In this document: positions 2,724 to 18,634 of the stretch, piece by piece | How the letters are laid out: every line of letters starts with the position of its first letter | Position numbering within the stretch: position 1 is the stretch's first letter | Virus record (IMG/VR): IMGVR_UViG_3300015360_002570 | Coordinates: 1-55,352 of that record | Strand: one strand, 5' to 3' | Source: a virus | Lineage: Duplodnaviria; Caudoviricetes | Length of the DNA: 55,352 bases | Program-made: the position numbers and the translations under genes | Notes under the pieces: generated by a model | The model's database searches: none | The model's input: only the letters and a program-made list of their open reading frames with translations | What the model was told of the DNA's origin: nothing

Positions 2724-2906
2724 TCAAATGGAGGTTGGGTCGAAGAGCCCGTGGAGGACGGACCAGCGGATCAGTTCGGCGAGGATGGCGGGATTGAGGT
2801 ATACGACGGGCTCGGAGGTGTGGGAGCCCAGACGCAGTTCGATGGTGCCGTAGCCGGGAGAGGTGGCATAGACGCCGTCGCCCAGGTACGTGGGGGGTGT
2901 GGTCAT
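2724..2906 (-). CDS. Small phage protein (YLGDGVYA type), paralog of 48182..48370
   Basis: MTTPPTYLGDGVYATSPGYGTIELRLGS..EPVVYLNP; ATG overlaps the polA stop (ATGA). Confidence 0.7.
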   Translation of the reverse strand: MTTPPTYLGDGVYATSPGYGTIELRLGSHTSEPVVYLNPAILAELIRWSVLHGLFDPTSI

Positions 2907-5194
2907 GGGAAGGGTCCGAGGGTCTTGAAGTCGAGGACGAGGGGGACGAAGTGGCCGTAGTGGGCGGAGAGGAGGTGCCAGTAGCCAATGTCCTGGACGT
3001 AGGTGACGGCGTCGCGGAGGAGGCGGGAGGCCAGGAGGGCGTAGGCGGGGGAGCGGCAGTCGATGCGGAGGGCGTCGTAAACGTCGAGGACGGGGAGGAT
3101 GGAGGACTGGACGCGGGGAGAGCGGAGCAGGAGGGTGTGCATGAAGCGGGCGTGGATAGAGATGAGAGTGTTGCCCGCGATGGTCTGGATGGGGAAGTTG
3201 CAGATTTCGTTGATGTCGTAGAGGGTGCCGCCGAACTGACGGGACTGGCCGGTAATGGGAAGGACGAGGGAGCCGGTCGAGTGGGCGGTAGCGATGAGGG
3301 ATTCCTGCCACTGCCAGAGGAGGGGCGTGTCGGTGGACATGTTGCGCGTGAACTTCTGGAAGACAGGGAGGGGGATCAGCTCGCCGATGTCTTCATAGAC
3401 GGAAGACTGAATCTTGTCGGGTCCGGCGCGGTATCCGCGGGCGAAGTTGCCACGCTTGCCGACTTGGCGCTCGCGGGCGTCGAAGGCAGGACAGGTTCGT
3501 TTCCAACGGGAGAGGGGGACACCGGATAGAGAGGGGTATCGCGCAAGGAGGGTGGGGAGGTCCCAGAAGAGGAGGGCGGTGGCGGTGTGCATGTCGTCGC
3601 CGCGGATAAAGGCGTTGACGTAGGAGGGCTCACCGCTTGTGATGGCGGGGACTCGGAGTTCGATCTGGGAGGCGTCGGCGGAGAGGATGCAGCCCGAGTG
3701 CCAGCGGGAGCGGACGCAGGCTTGGATGGGCGGGGGGTCGGTCTGGTGGGCACCGTCCTTGGGAGTGCGGCGGCCCTGCTTCGTACCGCCCTCGCCTCCC
3801 TGACCATCCTTGAAAGCGGATGGCGTGATGAACCAGGAGGTGTGGGAGAGCCAGACATCATGGTTTGTCCTCGTAGTCAGATTTGAGGACCTCGGTGCGA
3901 ATGTATTGGAAGATGAAAAGGAGGAGCCCGGAGGAGAGGAAGAGCCACCAGCCGCGGAAGAGGGGGTTGGTGGCGTCAAAGAAGTTTCGGAGGGCGATGA
4001 GAGTGCAGATGATGATGAAGGATTCGAGGATGCGCAGTCCGAAGGAACGTAGGAGAGAAGGCATGGGGGAGGCTCCGGGAGGGGGGGAAAGGGCAGGCCG
4101 GACTGGGGAGTGAGGATGGACTTGCGGGAGCGGACGCCGGAGGAAAGGCGGCGGGAGCCCCAGAGGAGGGGGAAGCAGTAGGTGCCCAGGAGTTTGTCGG
4201 CGCGAGAGAAGGAGTCCCAGTGGCGGGCCACACGGGAGAGGGGGGAGGTGGAGGGGAGGTAGGTGGAGATGAAGGTGCGGTTGGCCTCGGTCACTTGGAG
4301 GCGGTTCTTGATGGCGGAGTAGCCGACGAGGGGGTGAGAGCGGAGGTCGATGGAGGAGGCGTCCAGCATGGACTCCATGAAGGCGAGCTTGGAGGACTCG
4401 GAGCCAACGCCGGAGAGTTGGAGGCCCGCGGCGAGACAGCGGGCGGAGTGATAGGAGGCCGCCCGGTGCAGGCGGGACGCAAAGGAGAGGAGAGAGGGAC
4501 GGTGGAAGGGGACGCCGTTCTCGGACATCTGGACGCAGGACCAGAGATTGTCGGAAAAGAGCTGGAGGGTGAAGGCGCCCAGGTGGGGAGAGAGGAGGGG
4601 GTTGCCGAGAATGCGGCGCGCCATTGTGGAGGTGAGGATCAGGGAGCCGTGGGTGTCCTGGGCGCAGTAGGAGAGGACGGCGGCGGGGTCCTTGAATCGG
4701 TGGCCGGAGGCCGAGGTCTCGGAGTAGGCGGCGATCCCCAGGGCCAGGAGAATGGATTTGAGGGATTTCTCGGGGCGGGAGGGGTTCTCCAGGAAGCAGA
4801 GGTGGGAGGCATCGACGAGGAACTGGCGGGCGGGAGAGAGGGCGGAGCGGAAGAGGGGGGAAGCTGCGCGGAGGAAGGTGAGGTCGAACTGAAGGTTGAA
4901 GCCGGTAAGGGTGCGCAGGTGGCGAAGCCAGAAGAGCAGGTGGCGCTGGTCGGAGGCAGAGGACCAGTCGAAGACCAGGGTGGGTCCGGGCACCATCGAG
5001 GCAAGGTCAGACAGGGACGGGAGAGGGGGCAGGGGGGAGGCGGGGAGGGTGAGAGAGACGCAGTTGATGAGGGAGGAGAAGGGGGGCCGGTCCACGAAGA
5101 GACAGCGGCGGGGCGAGAAACAGGTCTGGGGCACGCTGCCTTCGAGGATGCCGTACGTCTCGATGTCGAGGGATGCGAAGGTCGGATCAGGCAT
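2903..5194 (-). CDS. polA: DNA polymerase family A with 3'-5' exonuclease domain
   Basis: ExoI SLDIET, ExoII GFNLQFD, ExoIII YCAQD; motif A SADASQIELR, motif B RQVGKRGNFARGY, CNFPIQ, motif C VYDAL. Confidence 0.95.
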   Translation of the reverse strand: MPDPTFASLDIETYGILEGSVPQTCFSPRRCLFVDRPPFSSLINCVSLTLPASPLPPLPSLSDLASMVPGPTLVFDWSSASDQRHLLFWLRHLRTLTGFNLQFDLTFLRAASPLFRSALSPARQFLVDASHLCFLENPSRPEKSLKSILLALGIAAYSETSASGHRFKDPAAVLSYCAQDTHGSLILTSTMARRILGNPLLSPHLGAFTLQLFSDNLWSCVQMSENGVPFHRPSLLSFASRLHRAASYHSARCLAAGLQLSGVGSESSKLAFMESMLDASSIDLRSHPLVGYSAIKNRLQVTEANRTFISTYLPSTSPLSRVARHWDSFSRADKLLGTYCFPLLWGSRRLSSGVRSRKSILTPQSGLPFPPLPEPPPCLLSYVPSDCASSNPSSSSALSSPSETSLTPPTPSSAAGGSSSPPGSSFSSSNTFAPRSSNLTTRTNHDVWLSHTSWFITPSAFKDGQGGEGGTKQGRRTPKDGAHQTDPPPIQACVRSRWHSGCILSADASQIELRVPAITSGEPSYVNAFIRGDDMHTATALLFWDLPTLLARYPSLSGVPLSRWKRTCPAFDARERQVGKRGNFARGYRAGPDKIQSSVYEDIGELIPLPVFQKFTRNMSTDTPLLWQWQESLIATAHSTGSLVLPITGQSRQFGGTLYDINEICNFPIQTIAGNTLISIHARFMHTLLLRSPRVQSSILPVLDVYDALRIDCRSPAYALLASRLLRDAVTYVQDIGYWHLLSAHYGHFVPLVLDFKTLGPFP
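3858..4064 (-). CDS. 68-aa two-TM membrane protein nested out of frame within polA
   Basis: GGAG SD 7 nt before ATG; two hydrophobic segments and a charged tail; C-ending codons in this frame while the PolA frame is Ser-rich low complexity over the same span. Confidence 0.65.
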   Translation of the reverse strand: MPSLLRSFGLRILESFIIICTLIALRNFFDATNPLFRGWWLFLSSGLLLFIFQYIRTEVLKSDYEDKP

Positions 5195-7494: not shown

Positions 7495-7746
7495 TCATTG
7501 GTCGGGGATGAGGGTGGCGCGGCAGCAGGCGGTGATGAGGTCGGTGGCGGGGATGGTGAGTTCGAGGTCGGCGCCGGAGATGAGGCTCTTGAGAAGGGCC
7601 GCGGAGATTTCAAGCCGGATCATGGTGGGGTCGGCGGTGGAGCGGACCCACAGCCAGGAGTAATCGGCGGCGGAGAGGACGGGCTTGGAGGCGGAGATGG
7701 CGTCGGAGGCGCAAATGCGGAGGGCGGTGACTGTGTGGTCAATCAT
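7495..7746 (-). CDS. Hypothetical protein
   Basis: GGAG SD; ATG overlaps the UDG stop; MIDHTVTALRIC... Confidence 0.6.
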   Translation of the reverse strand: MIDHTVTALRICASDAISASKPVLSAADYSWLWVRSTADPTMIRLEISAALLKSLISGADLELTIPATDLITACCRATLIPDQ

Positions 7747-8438
7747 GGGTTGGGGCTCCGGGGGGGGATGATGGAGGGGCGGGAGGGGACGGGGGTATGG
7801 CCGCGGAGAGCGGAGGCCAGAAGGGAGAGGTGGTCGGACATCGAGTGGATGTGGCGATTCTCGCGGGCCAGGAAAGCGGGGTGGTAGGTGGAGTAGACGC
7901 GGGCGCAAACAGAGTTGGAGAAGGTGAGGAGGGTGCCCTGGGTCGCCAGGCACTTGGTGAGGGAGGGAGAGCCGAGGCCCGCGAGAGCGTAGACGTGGGA
8001 AGCGGCTTCGGCGCCAAGGGTAAGAATGAAGATCGGAGAAGACCCCCTCTCCCGTAGGTTCAAGAGGTCGGAGAGGAGGTGGGGGCGGCAGGCCACGAAG
8101 GAGCGGCGCGGGGGGGCGTCGCCGTCGCGGTGGTAGCAGCGGCAGATGTTGGTGAGGTAAATGGAGGAGAGGATGTGGAGGCGGGCGCCGGGGATGAGGG
8201 CGTGGAAGAGGACGGAGGAGGTGGGGCCGGTGAAGGGGATGCCGGAGGCGTCCTCGGAGTAGCCGGGGTTGCGCCCGACGATGAGAAGGCTTGGAAGGCC
8301 CGGAAGGGGCGATGTCAGGCTGTATGTGGGGGCGCAGACGGTGCGCGCGACGGTGTGCAGGGGGCAGAGGGTGCAGACACCCACGGAGGGATGCGGAAGA
8401 GGGCAGGAGAGGGGAGAAGGGAAGAGGGGGAGCTGCAT
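7743..8438 (-). CDS. udg: Uracil-DNA glycosylase, family 4-like (4Fe-4S type)
   Basis: CTLCPL, LLIVGRNPGYSED..GIPFTG, IYLTNICRC, ACRPHL, ILTLG, STYHPAFLAR; TGATG coupling to the upstream gene. Confidence 0.9.
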   Translation of the reverse strand: MQLPLFPSPLSCPLPHPSVGVCTLCPLHTVARTVCAPTYSLTSPLPGLPSLLIVGRNPGYSEDASGIPFTGPTSSVLFHALIPGARLHILSSIYLTNICRCYHRDGDAPPRRSFVACRPHLLSDLLNLRERGSSPIFILTLGAEAASHVYALAGLGSPSLTKCLATQGTLLTFSNSVCARVYSTYHPAFLARENRHIHSMSDHLSLLASALRGHTPVPSRPSIIPPRSPNP

Positions 8439-8938
8439 CAGTTGCCCTTGTTGAGTTCGTCGATACGGGTCGCTCCCTTCGTACAATCCAACGTCTCCCA
8501 GTCGGGGCCGGTCGTGTCGATCCTGGGGAGTTTCTCCTTCGCTGCGAGGGCGGCGGTGAGGTCCGCGGCGATGTTCACTGCGTTGTATTCGGCGATGATG
8601 GCTGCGAGTTTGGCTCCGATTTCCGCGGAGGTGCCCGTAACGATGATCTCGGTGATTTTGGCTCCGATCTCCGCGGCGATGCTCGATGTGATCGCTGCGA
8701 GGGCGGCGGTGATCGCGGCGGATTCGTTCGCCCGGACCATCGGCTCAAAGTCGGGACACGGACTCCACCACTCGCACTCATTTGGGAGGCAACATATTCC
8801 GTCCGCGCCGATGTCGTTTGGCGTGCCGATGTAGGGCGGTTCGTGGGAATCGCACACGCCGGAATCCCACCAGCAGACCACGCCGTAGTCTTCGTGGTAC
8901 TCGGAACGGGGGCGGAGCTTTGTTTCGGTGGGGTTCAT
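8438..8938 (-). CDS. Hypothetical protein with Ala/Ile-rich internal repeat
   Basis: GGAG SD; EDYGVVCWW..EPPYIGTP N-terminus; AEIGAKI/AEIGAKL repeat. Confidence 0.7.
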   Translation of the reverse strand: MNPTETKLRPRSEYHEDYGVVCWWDSGVCDSHEPPYIGTPNDIGADGICCLPNECEWWSPCPDFEPMVRANESAAITAALAAITSSIAAEIGAKITEIIVTGTSAEIGAKLAAIIAEYNAVNIAADLTAALAAKEKLPRIDTTGPDWETLDCTKGATRIDELNKGN

Positions 8939-9240
8939 GGGAGGGGCTCCAGGGAGAAGGGGCAGATGGAGGAGACAAGGGGGCAGGGAGGGGGTGGGGG
9001 GAAGCCCGCGGCCAGGGCGATGGAGGGGGGGATCAGGGAGAAGGGGTAGAGGGTGATGTTGATGATGGAACAGGTGGGAGGGAAGGGGGGCGGGAGAGAG
9101 GTGGAGAGGCAGAGCCAGGGAAGCTCAATAGCCTCGATGCGCCAAAGGTGGGCGTGGAACGGAGGGGTGTAGAGGGAGAGGTAGTCCCCGACGCGGAGAG
9201 AATCGAGGGGGGGACGGGGTGGGAAGGGTGTGGGAGCCAA
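8935..9240 (-). CDS. Hypothetical protein
   Basis: ATG start; stop overlaps the next ATG. Confidence 0.5.
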   Translation of the reverse strand: MAPTPFPPRPPLDSLRVGDYLSLYTPPFHAHLWRIEAIELPWLCLSTSLPPPFPPTCSIINITLYPFSLIPPSIALAAGFPPPPPCPLVSSICPFSLEPLP

Positions 9241-17197: not shown

Positions 17198-18634
17198 TTA
17201 GTCCTCTCCCTGCTTCAGGAGGCCCAGACCCACCAGCCCTCGCACCTGGCCGCCCTCCACCCGGACCCGGTTCTTCTTCAGGCTCCAGCTTGTCTCTGTC
17301 ACGAGCGTCACCGGCAGCATGTTCCTTGGAACATCATCCTTGATCTTGTTCACCCTCCTGTACTCCTGCCACGTATCCCACAGCGTCTCGTTCGTGACAA
17401 ACCCATCATCCTTCTTCTCGAACCGGGCCTGCAAGAACTGGTCGTACGGATTGTTCAGCGCCCTGTAAGTGTCCGCGATCTCCTTCGCGCTCTTCAGCTC
17501 AGGCCACCCCAGCCCCTTTTGAAGGTCGCAGGCTCCCCGTACCGCCCAGGCCGCGATTCCCGCCGCCTCCTTCTTCAACTTGTCCTCCAGGTCCAGCTCG
17601 GGCTTCTCCCTGAAGCTCTTCACGAAGGGCAGAATCACCATCTTGCTGCCCATGCTGTCCCCATCATTCGCCATTGTGGGAATCCGGTTGCTGCTCAGCA
17701 CCACCATCGCCCCGCACGTCACGTTCTTCACCTGTCTCTGGTACTTGATGTTTACCGGAAAACTATCCCTGCCCACAATATTCTTCACGATCCCCGTAAA
17801 CTTCTGGTTGCTCACCCAGTCCTGGCCCACCAGCTCGCTGATGCTCAGCACCCTTGCAAACTCGCACCCGTCCAGCCCGAACGTGTCCGTCAGGCTGCTC
17901 ATCGTGCTGCTCATAAAGCACACGTCCCCCAACAGCATCTGGATCATCCTGACATTCACGCCTTTGCCGCCCCTCGTGGCCCCGAACAGCAGCGGAATCT
18001 TCGCGTGCCTCCTGTTTCCCGTAATGGCTGCCCCGAAAATCCTCTGATCCAGCACCTTCCACTCGGGCTCCGTGGCCCACTCATTCAGGCACTTCATCCA
18101 CCGGGGACACTGCGCCCCCTCCTCATACGCGCAGGGCATGACTCCCGGATCAAACCACGTCTCATCCCTCACCACCGTCCTCACTTCCCCCGTCTCGACG
18201 CTCAGCACTACGTCCTCGAACCCCACACAGTGCTCAGGATTGAACCTTTGCTCCGCCTCTTCCGTCCACGCGGGCGCGTTCACCCAGTTCCCGGTTCTCA
18301 GCGCCGCGATGGCCGCCACCACGTCCTCACACTTGTTCTTCGTGGGGCTCCACCTCTTCGCGCTCATGCCGCCCCCCACCGGCACCCAGCAATGCACGTT
18401 CTCGCCCCACCTGAACACATGATCCGTCAGGGCCTGGCGCCCCCTCTTAACCCACCTTCCCTTATACCACACCCAGAACTCGTCCCTCCAGCACCATAGG
18501 CCCACCCTCCCGTTCTCCGTGGCCATCTCGCTCCTCAGAAACGCCCGCGCCAGCCCCATGCTCTCCATCAGCATGATCGGCCTTGCCAGCGTCCCGTCCC
18601 CGTCCTGTATCACATCACTCTTCACTTCACTCAC
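17198..18634 (-). CDS. D5/P4-family SF3 helicase (primase-helicase C-terminal part, no primase domain)
   Basis: D5_N-like CPRWMKCLNEW, Walker A LLFGATRGGKG, Walker B LSISE, KNIVGRD..VNIKY, LSSN, ILPF; AAGGAG SD with GTG start. Confidence 0.88.
   Translation of the reverse strand: MSEVKSDVIQDGDGTLARPIMLMESMGLARAFLRSEMATENGRVGLWCWRDEFWVWYKGRWVKRGRQALTDHVFRWGENVHCWVPVGGGMSAKRWSPTKNKCEDVVAAIAALRTGNWVNAPAWTEEAEQRFNPEHCVGFEDVVLSVETGEVRTVVRDETWFDPGVMPCAYEEGAQCPRWMKCLNEWATEPEWKVLDQRIFGAAITGNRRHAKIPLLFGATRGGKGVNVRMIQMLLGDVCFMSSTMSSLTDTFGLDGCEFARVLSISELVGQDWVSNQKFTGIVKNIVGRDSFPVNIKYQRQVKNVTCGAMVVLSSNRIPTMANDGDSMGSKMVILPFVKSFREKPELDLEDKLKKEAAGIAAWAVRGACDLQKGLGWPELKSAKEIADTYRALNNPYDQFLQARFEKKDDGFVTNETLWDTWQEYRRVNKIKDDVPRNMLPVTLVTETSWSLKKNRVRVEGGQVRGLVGLGLLKQGED

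Follow-up and report, generated by a model that had tools for sequence, protein, structure and literature searches.

The window analysed here is a whole virus record of 55,352 bases (IMG/VR IMGVR_UViG_3300015360_002570), assigned to the Caudoviricetes. On its minus strand, an open reading frame (ORF) of 763 codons without an internal stop (2903..5194) encodes a predicted family-A DNA polymerase (PolA). Wholly within it, in the +2 frame relative to PolA, lies a second ORF of 68 amino acids, running from an ATG start to a TGA stop (3858..4064, minus strand). Two complete ORFs in different frames of the same strand are thus carried by the same DNA, that is, they form a nested pair, and the nested ATG is the first start codon of its frame past the preceding stop. 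Both the coordinates and the translation agree to the base with those of the first-pass annotation, which was made from the sequence alone. The features of the locus are listed below; structural evidence comes from AlphaFold2 (AF2) models with their predicted local distance difference test (pLDDT) and predicted template modelling (pTM) scores, and codon bias is given as GC content at third codon positions (GC3).

2903..5194, minus strand: continuous ORF for a predicted family-A DNA polymerase with an N-terminal 3'-5' exonuclease, 763 amino acids (P0001); stop-free frame, profile match, AF2 model
5159..5167, minus strand: exonuclease motif D10-I-E12, invariant in 18 of 18 relatives
4064..5194, minus strand: PolA N half, residues 1-377, exonuclease and thumb side, ending after KLLGTYCFPLL...SILTPQSGLPFPPLPEPPP; a separate protein in split relatives
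4073..4076, minus strand: GGAG element resembling a Shine-Dalgarno sequence, with 8 nt between it and the nested ATG; read in the PolA frame, it belongs to a conserved PEPP
3858..4064, minus strand: putative nested gene for a 68-amino-acid two-helix membrane protein (P0002), ATG at 4062-4064, TGA at 3858-3860; ORF, GC3, hydrophobicity, AF2 model
3860..4063, minus strand: PolA linker, residues 378-445, rich in Ser, Pro, Thr and Ala; composition, pLDDT, comparison with relatives
3653..3676, minus strand: polymerase motif A (D507-ASQIELR514), with D507, Q510, E512 and L513 invariant; aligns with Taq DYSQIELR
2903..3859, minus strand: C half of PolA (residues 446-763), comprising the palm, the fingers and motifs A, B and C, starting D446-VWLSHTSWF; aligns to Taq chain 277-515

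The host gene is a predicted family-A polymerase with a disordered linker

The Pfam model DNA_pol_A (PF00476) scored 32.4 bits at PolA residues 500-543, slightly below its cut-off of 34.3. A profile of 18 PolA relatives, searched against the PDB, matched Taq/Klenow polymerase over positions 475-730 (E 1.3e-19), and the AF2 model of the whole protein has a mean pLDDT of 84.3 and a pTM of 0.83. The exonuclease DxE motif (D10, E12) is unchanged in all 18 aligned relatives, as are motif B (K580, N583, F584) and motif C (D707); motif A starts about 60 residues beyond the linker. By motifs and fold alike, the ORF is a predicted family-A DNA polymerase with a 3'-5' exonuclease. With PolA as the query, tblastn against phage GenBank sequences returned four weak matches (at most 32% identity) and no close relative, and a first metagenome scan for relatives found none.

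The linker differs in composition. Of its 68 residues, 45 are Ser, Pro, Thr or Ala, compared with 234 of the 695 residues in the remaining PolA, and it is predicted to be disordered, with pLDDT values of 25-42 over residues 384-440. It is missing from most PolA relatives. The insert site lies between KLLGTYCFPLL and DVWLSHTSWF, which align to Taq KLKSTYIDPL (matched by KLLGTYCFPL) and to the strand before Taq TATGRLSS; from the Taq structure, we take this joint to be the thumb/palm junction. The sole start-like codon in the linker from which the C half could be restarted is a TTG, 40 codons upstream and without a Shine-Dalgarno sequence. With no usable restart, the palm/fingers half would be obtainable only by read-through. 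The window therefore lacks the N-half stop and C-half start of a split PolA, and its ORF is continuous.

A third-frame ORF (3376..3861) was considered as a restart of the C half and rejected, being in the wrong frame and having a GC3 0.16 below that of the PolA frame. The nested stop lies inside ATGATG (3858-3861, minus strand), whose ATG opens this 161-codon ORF. It has the look of a fortuitous ORF, or could be what remains of an ATGA-coupled restart.

The nested ORF carries the codon bias of a gene and its own start signals

The coding strand is strongly C-rich here (GC skew 0.4-0.5), stops are rare in every frame and alternative frames are often open, so that an open ORF by itself is no more than would be expected by chance. 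What goes beyond chance is the switch of codon bias between frames, together with the recurrence of the arrangement in relatives. The frequency of C at third positions is 0.71 in PolA beyond the overlap; inside the overlap, it is 0.65 in the nested frame versus 0.32 in the PolA frame. In sliding windows, the bias passes from the PolA frame to the +2 frame and back exactly over the nested ORF, both in the window and in the related locus L001. Over the nested ORF, the GC content of the window dips to 0.555. As a comparison set, we took every ATG ORF of 50 codons or more that lies in an alternative frame on the same strand within a called gene of the window, using a crude, GC3-based gene map. By its GC3 excess over the host frame (+0.26), the nested ORF ranks first of the 22; the mean of the set is -0.19 with a standard deviation of 0.18, and only three values exceed 0. 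Among the eight loci with a nested ORF, described below, GC3 is higher in the nested frame than in the PolA frame of the overlap in seven, clearly so in five.

The same bias accounts for the composition of the linker. The third codon position of the nested frame is the second position of the PolA frame, where the frequency of C is 0.66, and C at second positions gives Ser, Pro, Thr and Ala codons. The Ser/Pro low-complexity stretch that the first-pass annotation had noticed in PolA is indeed present (residues 378-445), and it is better described as a by-product of codon bias in the nested frame.

The nested ATG is preceded by the context CCCGGAGCCTCCCCCATG at 4062-4079. Similar contexts occur at 7744-7759 (GGAGCCCCAACCCATG), and, with three mismatches, at 8936-8953, the start of the ORF 8438..8938, so that the resemblance to the start contexts of neighbouring genes, which had been claimed for the gene at 7746, holds. 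At up to three mismatches, the window contains three such matches, against 0.18 expected. The arrangement CCGGAGCC, 5-6 nt and ATG is common to the window, L001, L082 and L011. These signals indicate that the inner gene is a candidate gene with start signals of its own.

The nested ORF encodes a predicted two-helix membrane protein with counterparts in relatives

The 68-amino-acid product has an N-terminus of net charge +2, two hydrophobic segments (residues 9-25 and 39-55) and an acidic tail, the last 15 residues having a net charge of -1. AF2 modelled helices at residues 3-31 and 34-64 with a pLDDT of 73.5, the pTM being only 0.36. The layout of two transmembrane (TM) helices and a charged tail that had been proposed for it is thus borne out by hydrophobicity and the model.

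A +2 ORF occurs at the equivalent place in L001 and L082, whose PolA proteins are 57% and about 50% identical to that of the window. Their products (P0003 and P0033, respectively) and a further protein, P0034, are the counterparts of P0002. All four proteins have a basic N-terminus, two hydrophobic 17-mers (mean Kyte-Doolittle values of 1.64-2.29) and an acidic tail. P0034 was predicted independently by the gene caller of its source and is identical to the L001 ORF at 66 of 73 positions. The likeness of these sequences is low, and therefore the homology of the two-TM proteins rests on position, frame and architecture. Searches of Pfam and PHROGs with the 68-amino-acid protein returned nothing but Presenilin at E 0.21, which we take as noise, and the ESM Atlas gave unnamed clusters with a best score of 0.86, no more than a lead.

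Conservation lies in the nested frame, with the PolA frame kept open

When the window is compared with L001, the alignment of the nested proteins is in register (E 9e-4), and that of the PolA-frame linkers only out of register (E 0.14). In a second lineage, the nested proteins of L003 and L075 align with E 8e-9, versus E 9.5 for the PolA frame. In the PolA frame of the close pair P0004 and P0005, 64 of 77 positions inside the overlap are identical, with radical changes, and 638 of 687 outside it. Among the close relatives represented by P0005-P0008 and P0034, PolA identity is 77-82%. Conservation of PolA-frame residues together with stops in the nested frame would have spoken against a nested gene; in the pairs compared here, it was the nested frame that was conserved. 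These comparisons indicate that the nested frame is the probable holder of the information and that the PolA frame is merely kept open.

The PolA frame is in frame and stop-free in all eight loci with a nested ORF, which represent seven distinct sequences (L007 and L008 are identical here). When codons were shuffled, the probability of an open frame was 0.39, 0.65, 0.28, 0.04, 0.15, 0.38 and 0.15 for the seven, with a product of 2.4e-5. Given these chances, the openness of all eight suggests that the PolA frame appears to be kept open by selection. The usual criterion in overlapping genes, as given in the available part of one source (PMC9093120), is that the codon bias of the genome marks the older frame. 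Codon bias and conservation together indicate that the small gene's frame is likely primary and that the PolA linker frame was laid over it.

An assembly error can be set aside as the origin of the pair, because contigs of other sequencing runs are identical. Logan contigs from three further runs (X2, X3 and X4) cover 3822-4081, 3917-4066, and 3768-3918 plus 3907-4057, respectively, and show no differences and no indels over the nested ORF; all three are microbial-mat metagenomes of 2018, possibly from one sampling campaign. A further run, X1, may be the one from which the record itself was assembled, and the DNA stems from microbial-mat metagenomes. These contigs hold no natural variants over the nested ORF from which substitutions could be counted by frame. 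On the sequence evidence as a whole, comparison confirms the predicted nested gene as real. The first-pass proposal that a tolerant part of PolA contains a complete small gene in another frame, while the PolA frame is kept, is thus upheld by codon bias, by the relatives and by the open frame.

The same joint holds inserts and splits in related polymerases

Profiles of the two flanks of the insert site were run on 161 sequences (160 loci and the window), and both flanks were found in 127. In 107 of these, the flanks lie only 9-87 nt apart, and most of the 127 have no insert; in the other 20, the gap is at least 150 nt. The flank profiles delimit the insertion, and the 20 inserts sort as follows.

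Nested ORF in the +2 frame of a continuous PolA (8): the window, L001, L082, L003, L075, L007, L008 and L092
In-frame insert with one stop (1): L011, identical in the metagenome-assembled genome contig L162, with GTG and GGAG six codons before the C half
Truly split PolA with halves in different frames (3): L010, L013 and L022
Ordinary PolA-frame insert with alternative frames closed (8): L005, L006, L012, L014, L015, L017, L018 and L019

In the split forms, one or more genes, here called cargo, stand between the halves. In L022 (732-3228), the TGA of the N half overlaps the ATG of a gene for a Cpn10/GroES-like protein (1922-2254; 39.4 bits versus a cut-off of 21.1), and the C half restarts 5 nt past it as MLGLSHPTWY. 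L013 has two cargo ORFs between the halves and L010 at least four, one of which matches phrog_1273. Free-standing C halves, of which that of the window PolA is the equivalent, fall into at least 14 clusters among 16 of 21 matches (P0036-P0049; 315-346 amino acids), with a Met 8-30 residues ahead of the SHP(S/T)W motif. Among 29 matches, five proteins consist of the N half only (P0021, P0022, P0024, P0028 and P0029). Their tails are rich in Ser, Pro, Thr and Lys, because N halves run on into cargo out of frame until a stop is reached. Predicted splits of PolA inside the polymerase domain, at this joint, are therefore widespread. The "tolerant PolA loop" of the first-pass annotation can be kept as regards tolerance, its place being refined to the joint at which relatives have PolA split around cargo genes.

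The frames link the fused and the split forms. The nested ORF is in the +2 frame in every case, which is exactly the frame that would result if, as in L022, the N-half stop and the ATG of the cargo overlapped as ATGA. At the position of the L022 TGA, the fused forms carry a Cys or Trp codon (TGC, TGT or TGG). At the other end, four TGA stops fall in the same conserved PolA codons (N-x-D): those of the nested ORFs in the window, L001 and L082, and that of the last cargo ORF in the split L010. Cargo differs by lineage (two-TM, soluble with an acidic tail, GroES-like), which implies that the site is conserved and not the function.

Some further observations concern these inserts. The ordinary in-frame inserts at the joint are about 45-55 amino acids long, and the nested L007 and L008 fall within that group. 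The insert of L011 (4245-4667), and equally that of L162, holds a nested ORF with a long poly-Asp/Glu tail and one stop in the PolA frame, and groups with split forms on the tree. Cargo proteins of separate lineages end acidic (ORF ends in the window, L001, L082, L003, L075, L011 and L092), and the PolA frame over these acidic tails is rich in Arg, Lys, Ser and Thr shortly before the palm strand. Thirteen candidates for further nested genes elsewhere in PolA were dropped, nearly all being upstream genes caught by an over-long definition of the N part.

Ancestry of the nested arrangement and proposed mode of expression

A FastTree phylogeny of 120 C halves grouped the window and L001 with L010, L011, L013 and L022 in a starred clade, to which the insert-free L118 is sister; on this tree, the nested state needs four changes. 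A quick IQ-TREE reconstruction of 39 C halves gave the window subclade (P0001 and P0004-P0008) a support of 100 and placed it within a starred clade of 20 rows, 13 of which are split forms when L011 is counted with the 12 others. The approximately unbiased (AU) test rejected the grouping of the 17 split rows into one clade (p 0.0042); this group had been defined once the tree was known. Parsimony moderately favours a split ancestor with secondary re-fusion in the window lineage.

Overall, we consider it probable that the locus is a real nested pair in which PolA is read through a linker lying over a cargo gene, with an internal start for the cargo and split ancestry. Ribosomes that start at 5194 would read straight on, the C-rich third positions of the cargo becoming second positions of PolA codons. 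The result would be a disordered tether of 68 residues joining the exonuclease/thumb half to the palm/fingers half. Internal starts at 4064, by other ribosomes, would give a small hairpin protein of the inner membrane, with its basic N-terminus and its acidic C-terminal tail probably both in the cytoplasm. The joint may tolerate such a tether because it tolerates a complete break of the chain: in many relatives, the halves are two genes separated by cargo genes, from one up to four or more. The window lineage would have arisen from a split form when the N half came to be read through the cargo without a stop and re-entered the C half in frame.

A wider generalization is put forward tentatively, as something short of likely: the thumb/palm joint may be a recurrent site of cargo docking and gene fission, at which the halves were repeatedly rejoined, at least four times, by way of out-of-frame cargo. 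The tether of an essential enzyme would then stem from overprinting on a foreign gene, a counterpart in a bacterial virus of the spacer/preS overlap of hepadnaviruses. A bolder extension would have the cargo proteins, many of which have acidic tails opposite a basic PolA-frame stretch, act as factors coupled to replication, with translation of the polymerase mRNA setting their dose.

Alternative explanations

A number of observations weigh against the reading of the locus as a re-fused polymerase with a nested cargo gene. The three two-TM proteins are only 26-28% alike in alignment, and P0003 and P0033 give no BLAST alignment. With phmmer, the 68-amino-acid protein had no match among 1.84 billion representatives, and a profile of the three two-TM proteins recovered P0034 alone from a collection of 5.8 billion; neither set held a homologue from beyond the clade. 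In L082 and L092 the shift of codon bias is only marginal, and in L007 it runs the other way; the gene map behind the comparison of 22 ORFs is crude, and codon shuffling leaves the PolA frame of the window open in 39% of trials. No RNA run is found among the runs that hold the stretch. As for ancestry, the group in the AU test was defined with the tree in view, the backbone within the 20-row clade is not resolved, and nonsense mutations make the passage from fused to split easy, so that the direction of change is not settled.

The nested gene might instead have been born de novo, by overprinting within a pre-existing loop insertion of PolA, and not have been acquired as cargo. The sister group does have a PolA-frame insert of about 45-55 amino acids at the joint with alternative frames closed, the nested L007 and L008 lie inside that group, codon bias in L007 still favours the PolA frame, and the nested proteins are orphans, as young genes are. 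However, the neighbours within the window clade are split and carry cargo of known families (Cpn10 in L022, phrog_1273 in L010), and in the window and L001 the codon bias of the genome sits in the nested frame, marking it as the older one by the criterion in the available part of PMC9093120. We regard this origin as unlikely. Chance is a much poorer explanation: the 68-codon ORF would be fortuitous, the insert a low-complexity linker and the hydrophobicity a consequence of a pyrimidine-rich strand. In its favour, open alternative frames are common (22 ATG ORFs of 50 amino acids or more), Ser/Pro-rich frames yield Leu/Phe-rich shifted frames, and the set of 1.84 billion contained no homologues. 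This account is very improbable in view of the codon-bias switch, the conserved GGAG-ATG context, the equal architecture in L001, L082 and P0034 despite saturated divergence, the conservation of the nested frame and not of the PolA frame, and the dip in GC to 0.555 over the ORF.

Two further alternatives concern expression. PolA may not be one chain, if the insert were removed (as an intron, as an intein or by ribosomal bypass) or the linker cut, the open frame then being incidental. Relatives do work as two chains, an open frame over the window insert has a 39% chance, and L011/L162 bear one stop in an otherwise in-frame insert. Against this stand the absence from the window of a stop and of a C-half restart preceded by a Shine-Dalgarno sequence, and the openness of the frame in all eight nested loci. 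Rfam, introns included, gave no match over 3300-4700 at E up to 1 and none in nine related loci at gathering score; Pfam gave no intein domain at E up to 1; no stop follows any take-off codon for bypass; and the DNA contigs show no shorter form. Processing of this kind seems improbable. Least credible of all is that the nested frame is reached by a -1 frameshift from PolA, which would fuse the exonuclease/thumb half to a membrane anchor and leave no free 68-amino-acid protein. In its favour, the +2 (that is, -1) frame is open far upstream of the ATG, with a C7 run 15 nt before it. Against it, no canonical slippery heptamer occurs in frame, a Shine-Dalgarno sequence and an ATG belonging to the ORF itself are conserved in four loci, and cargo genes are plainly separate in the split relatives.

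Possible functions of the membrane protein

The nested gene lies in the polymerase gene, among genes for replication.

1142-1759: ERCC4-type nuclease gene
7746-8486: uracil-DNA glycosylase (UDG) gene, minus strand
17201-18634: primase-helicase gene

Class II holins are defined by two TM helices, a charged C-terminal tail and a length of about 65-95 amino acids. With two hydrophobic helices, a charged tail and 68 amino acids, the protein has the size and layout of that class. The holin reading of the first-pass annotation finds little beyond that layout: the protein has no Pfam or PHROG match and no homologue that would place it in a holin family, and the gene stands beside nuclease, UDG and primase genes and not in a lysis cassette beside an endolysin. 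No lysis enzyme was recognised among the 47 proteins of the window, but most proteins of this very divergent phage match nothing, and a lysis cassette elsewhere in the genome is possible.

Small membrane proteins of phages offer other models. T4 Imm is small and has a two-TM layout, and phi29 p1 and p16.7 anchor replication in the membrane. Like the 68-amino-acid protein, T4 Imm, the class II holins and phi29 p1/p16.7 have fewer than about 100 amino acids, one or two TM helices and a charged cytoplasmic end. Imm and p1/p16.7 are expressed early with replication genes, as co-location suggests for the nested gene. It has no sequence or profile likeness to any of them. The protein would be an accessory made with the replication genes and most likely acting at the cell membrane, which is the weakest step of the proposed mechanism. 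By analogy, superinfection exclusion fits best with a small inner-membrane hairpin made with early genes, and is a possible role; a holin-like role and a replication-anchoring role are each doubtful. T4 Imm, which blocks DNA injection, is a textbook case of superinfection exclusion, according to the part of PMC11436027 that is available.

Comparison with known systems and significance

Small genes embedded in others are familiar in phages, as Rz1 within Rz and the lysis gene E within D of phiX174. Like the window gene, these encode small membrane-directed proteins, out of frame on the same strand, from an internal start. In Rz/Rz1 and D/E, the outer gene serves lysis in the first case and encodes a scaffold protein in the second, and each of the two frames gives folded or functional sequence; in the window, the host is a replicative polymerase and the overlapped part a tether.

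By analogy, the nearest counterpart in logic would be the spacer of the hepadnavirus polymerase. In hepatitis B virus, this spacer is a disordered tether lying over the preS/S envelope gene in another frame, as the available part of PMC9093120 describes. On that description, both polymerase ORFs hold a complete out-of-frame membrane-protein gene, the overlapped part is in each a disordered and poorly conserved tether, and the tether is regarded as the frame added on top of the other gene. Hepatitis B virus is an animal reverse-transcribing virus whose overlap is in the +1 frame and takes up much of the genome. The window, in contrast, belongs to a double-stranded DNA phage of bacteria with a family-A polymerase, its overlap is in the +2 frame, cargo varies by lineage, fused forms alternate with split ones, and there is no sequence relation.

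Split PolA genes are on record. As far as the accessible portions of the sources go, they occur in clade B of the T7-like cyanophages, where nblA of S-TIP37 overlaps the exonuclease ORF by 94 nt (PMC12695635), in MEP401-type OM43 phages (PMC10580990), and as an exonuclease/polymerase split of phage PolA (PMC10201439). As described there, two ORFs are accompanied by an accessory gene at the break or overlapping it; L010, L013, L022 and the proteins P0036-P0049 are of that kind. Leaving MEP401 aside, those splits lie, in the same portions, between the exonuclease and polymerase domains, whereas the splits described here interrupt the polymerase domain itself, past the KLxxTYxxPL helix and ahead of the strand that precedes TGR. 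The window differs from both in that the gene is not split and the cargo is nested in a continuous ORF. Searches of open-access full text did not turn up any published account of a phage whose continuous PolA ORF contains an out-of-frame gene.

Gene callers give only the polymerase here, and among the nested proteins P0034 alone was ever called by a source, so small phage genes hidden in essential genes may stay unannotated. PolA length variants, as phage markers, can likewise conceal other genes. The arrangement also suggests a route between gene fission and fusion: cargo would split an essential gene, the loss of one stop together with a frame match would re-fuse it, and the cargo would then serve as the out-of-frame tether of the re-fused gene. 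The joint would be a natural permissive and split point in the family-A polymerase domain, useful for the design of split or insert-bearing polymerases, and the system may provide a tractable bacterial-virus model of the polymerase-spacer/envelope overlap of hepadnaviruses.

Other features of the window and of distant relatives

The UDG-superfamily gene at 7746-8486 (66.4 bits) is separate from PolA and lies upstream of it, and in the distant PolA relatives P0023, P0025-P0027 and P0030-P0032, UDG is fused to the polymerase. A second low-complexity insert rich in Ser, Pro and Thr is found in the exonuclease part of P0009, P0011, P0012 and P0015 (alignment columns of about 60-130), where another out-of-frame gene could be hidden.

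The GC skew of the window is extreme and modular. Over 1-16 kb, where the genes are on the minus strand, it is +0.3 to +0.5. The plus-strand genes that follow have a negative skew over 18-32 kb, which turns positive from 32 kb onwards without a change of coding strand. These modules imply that the early and packaging genes have a C-rich coding strand and the late large genes a G-rich one.

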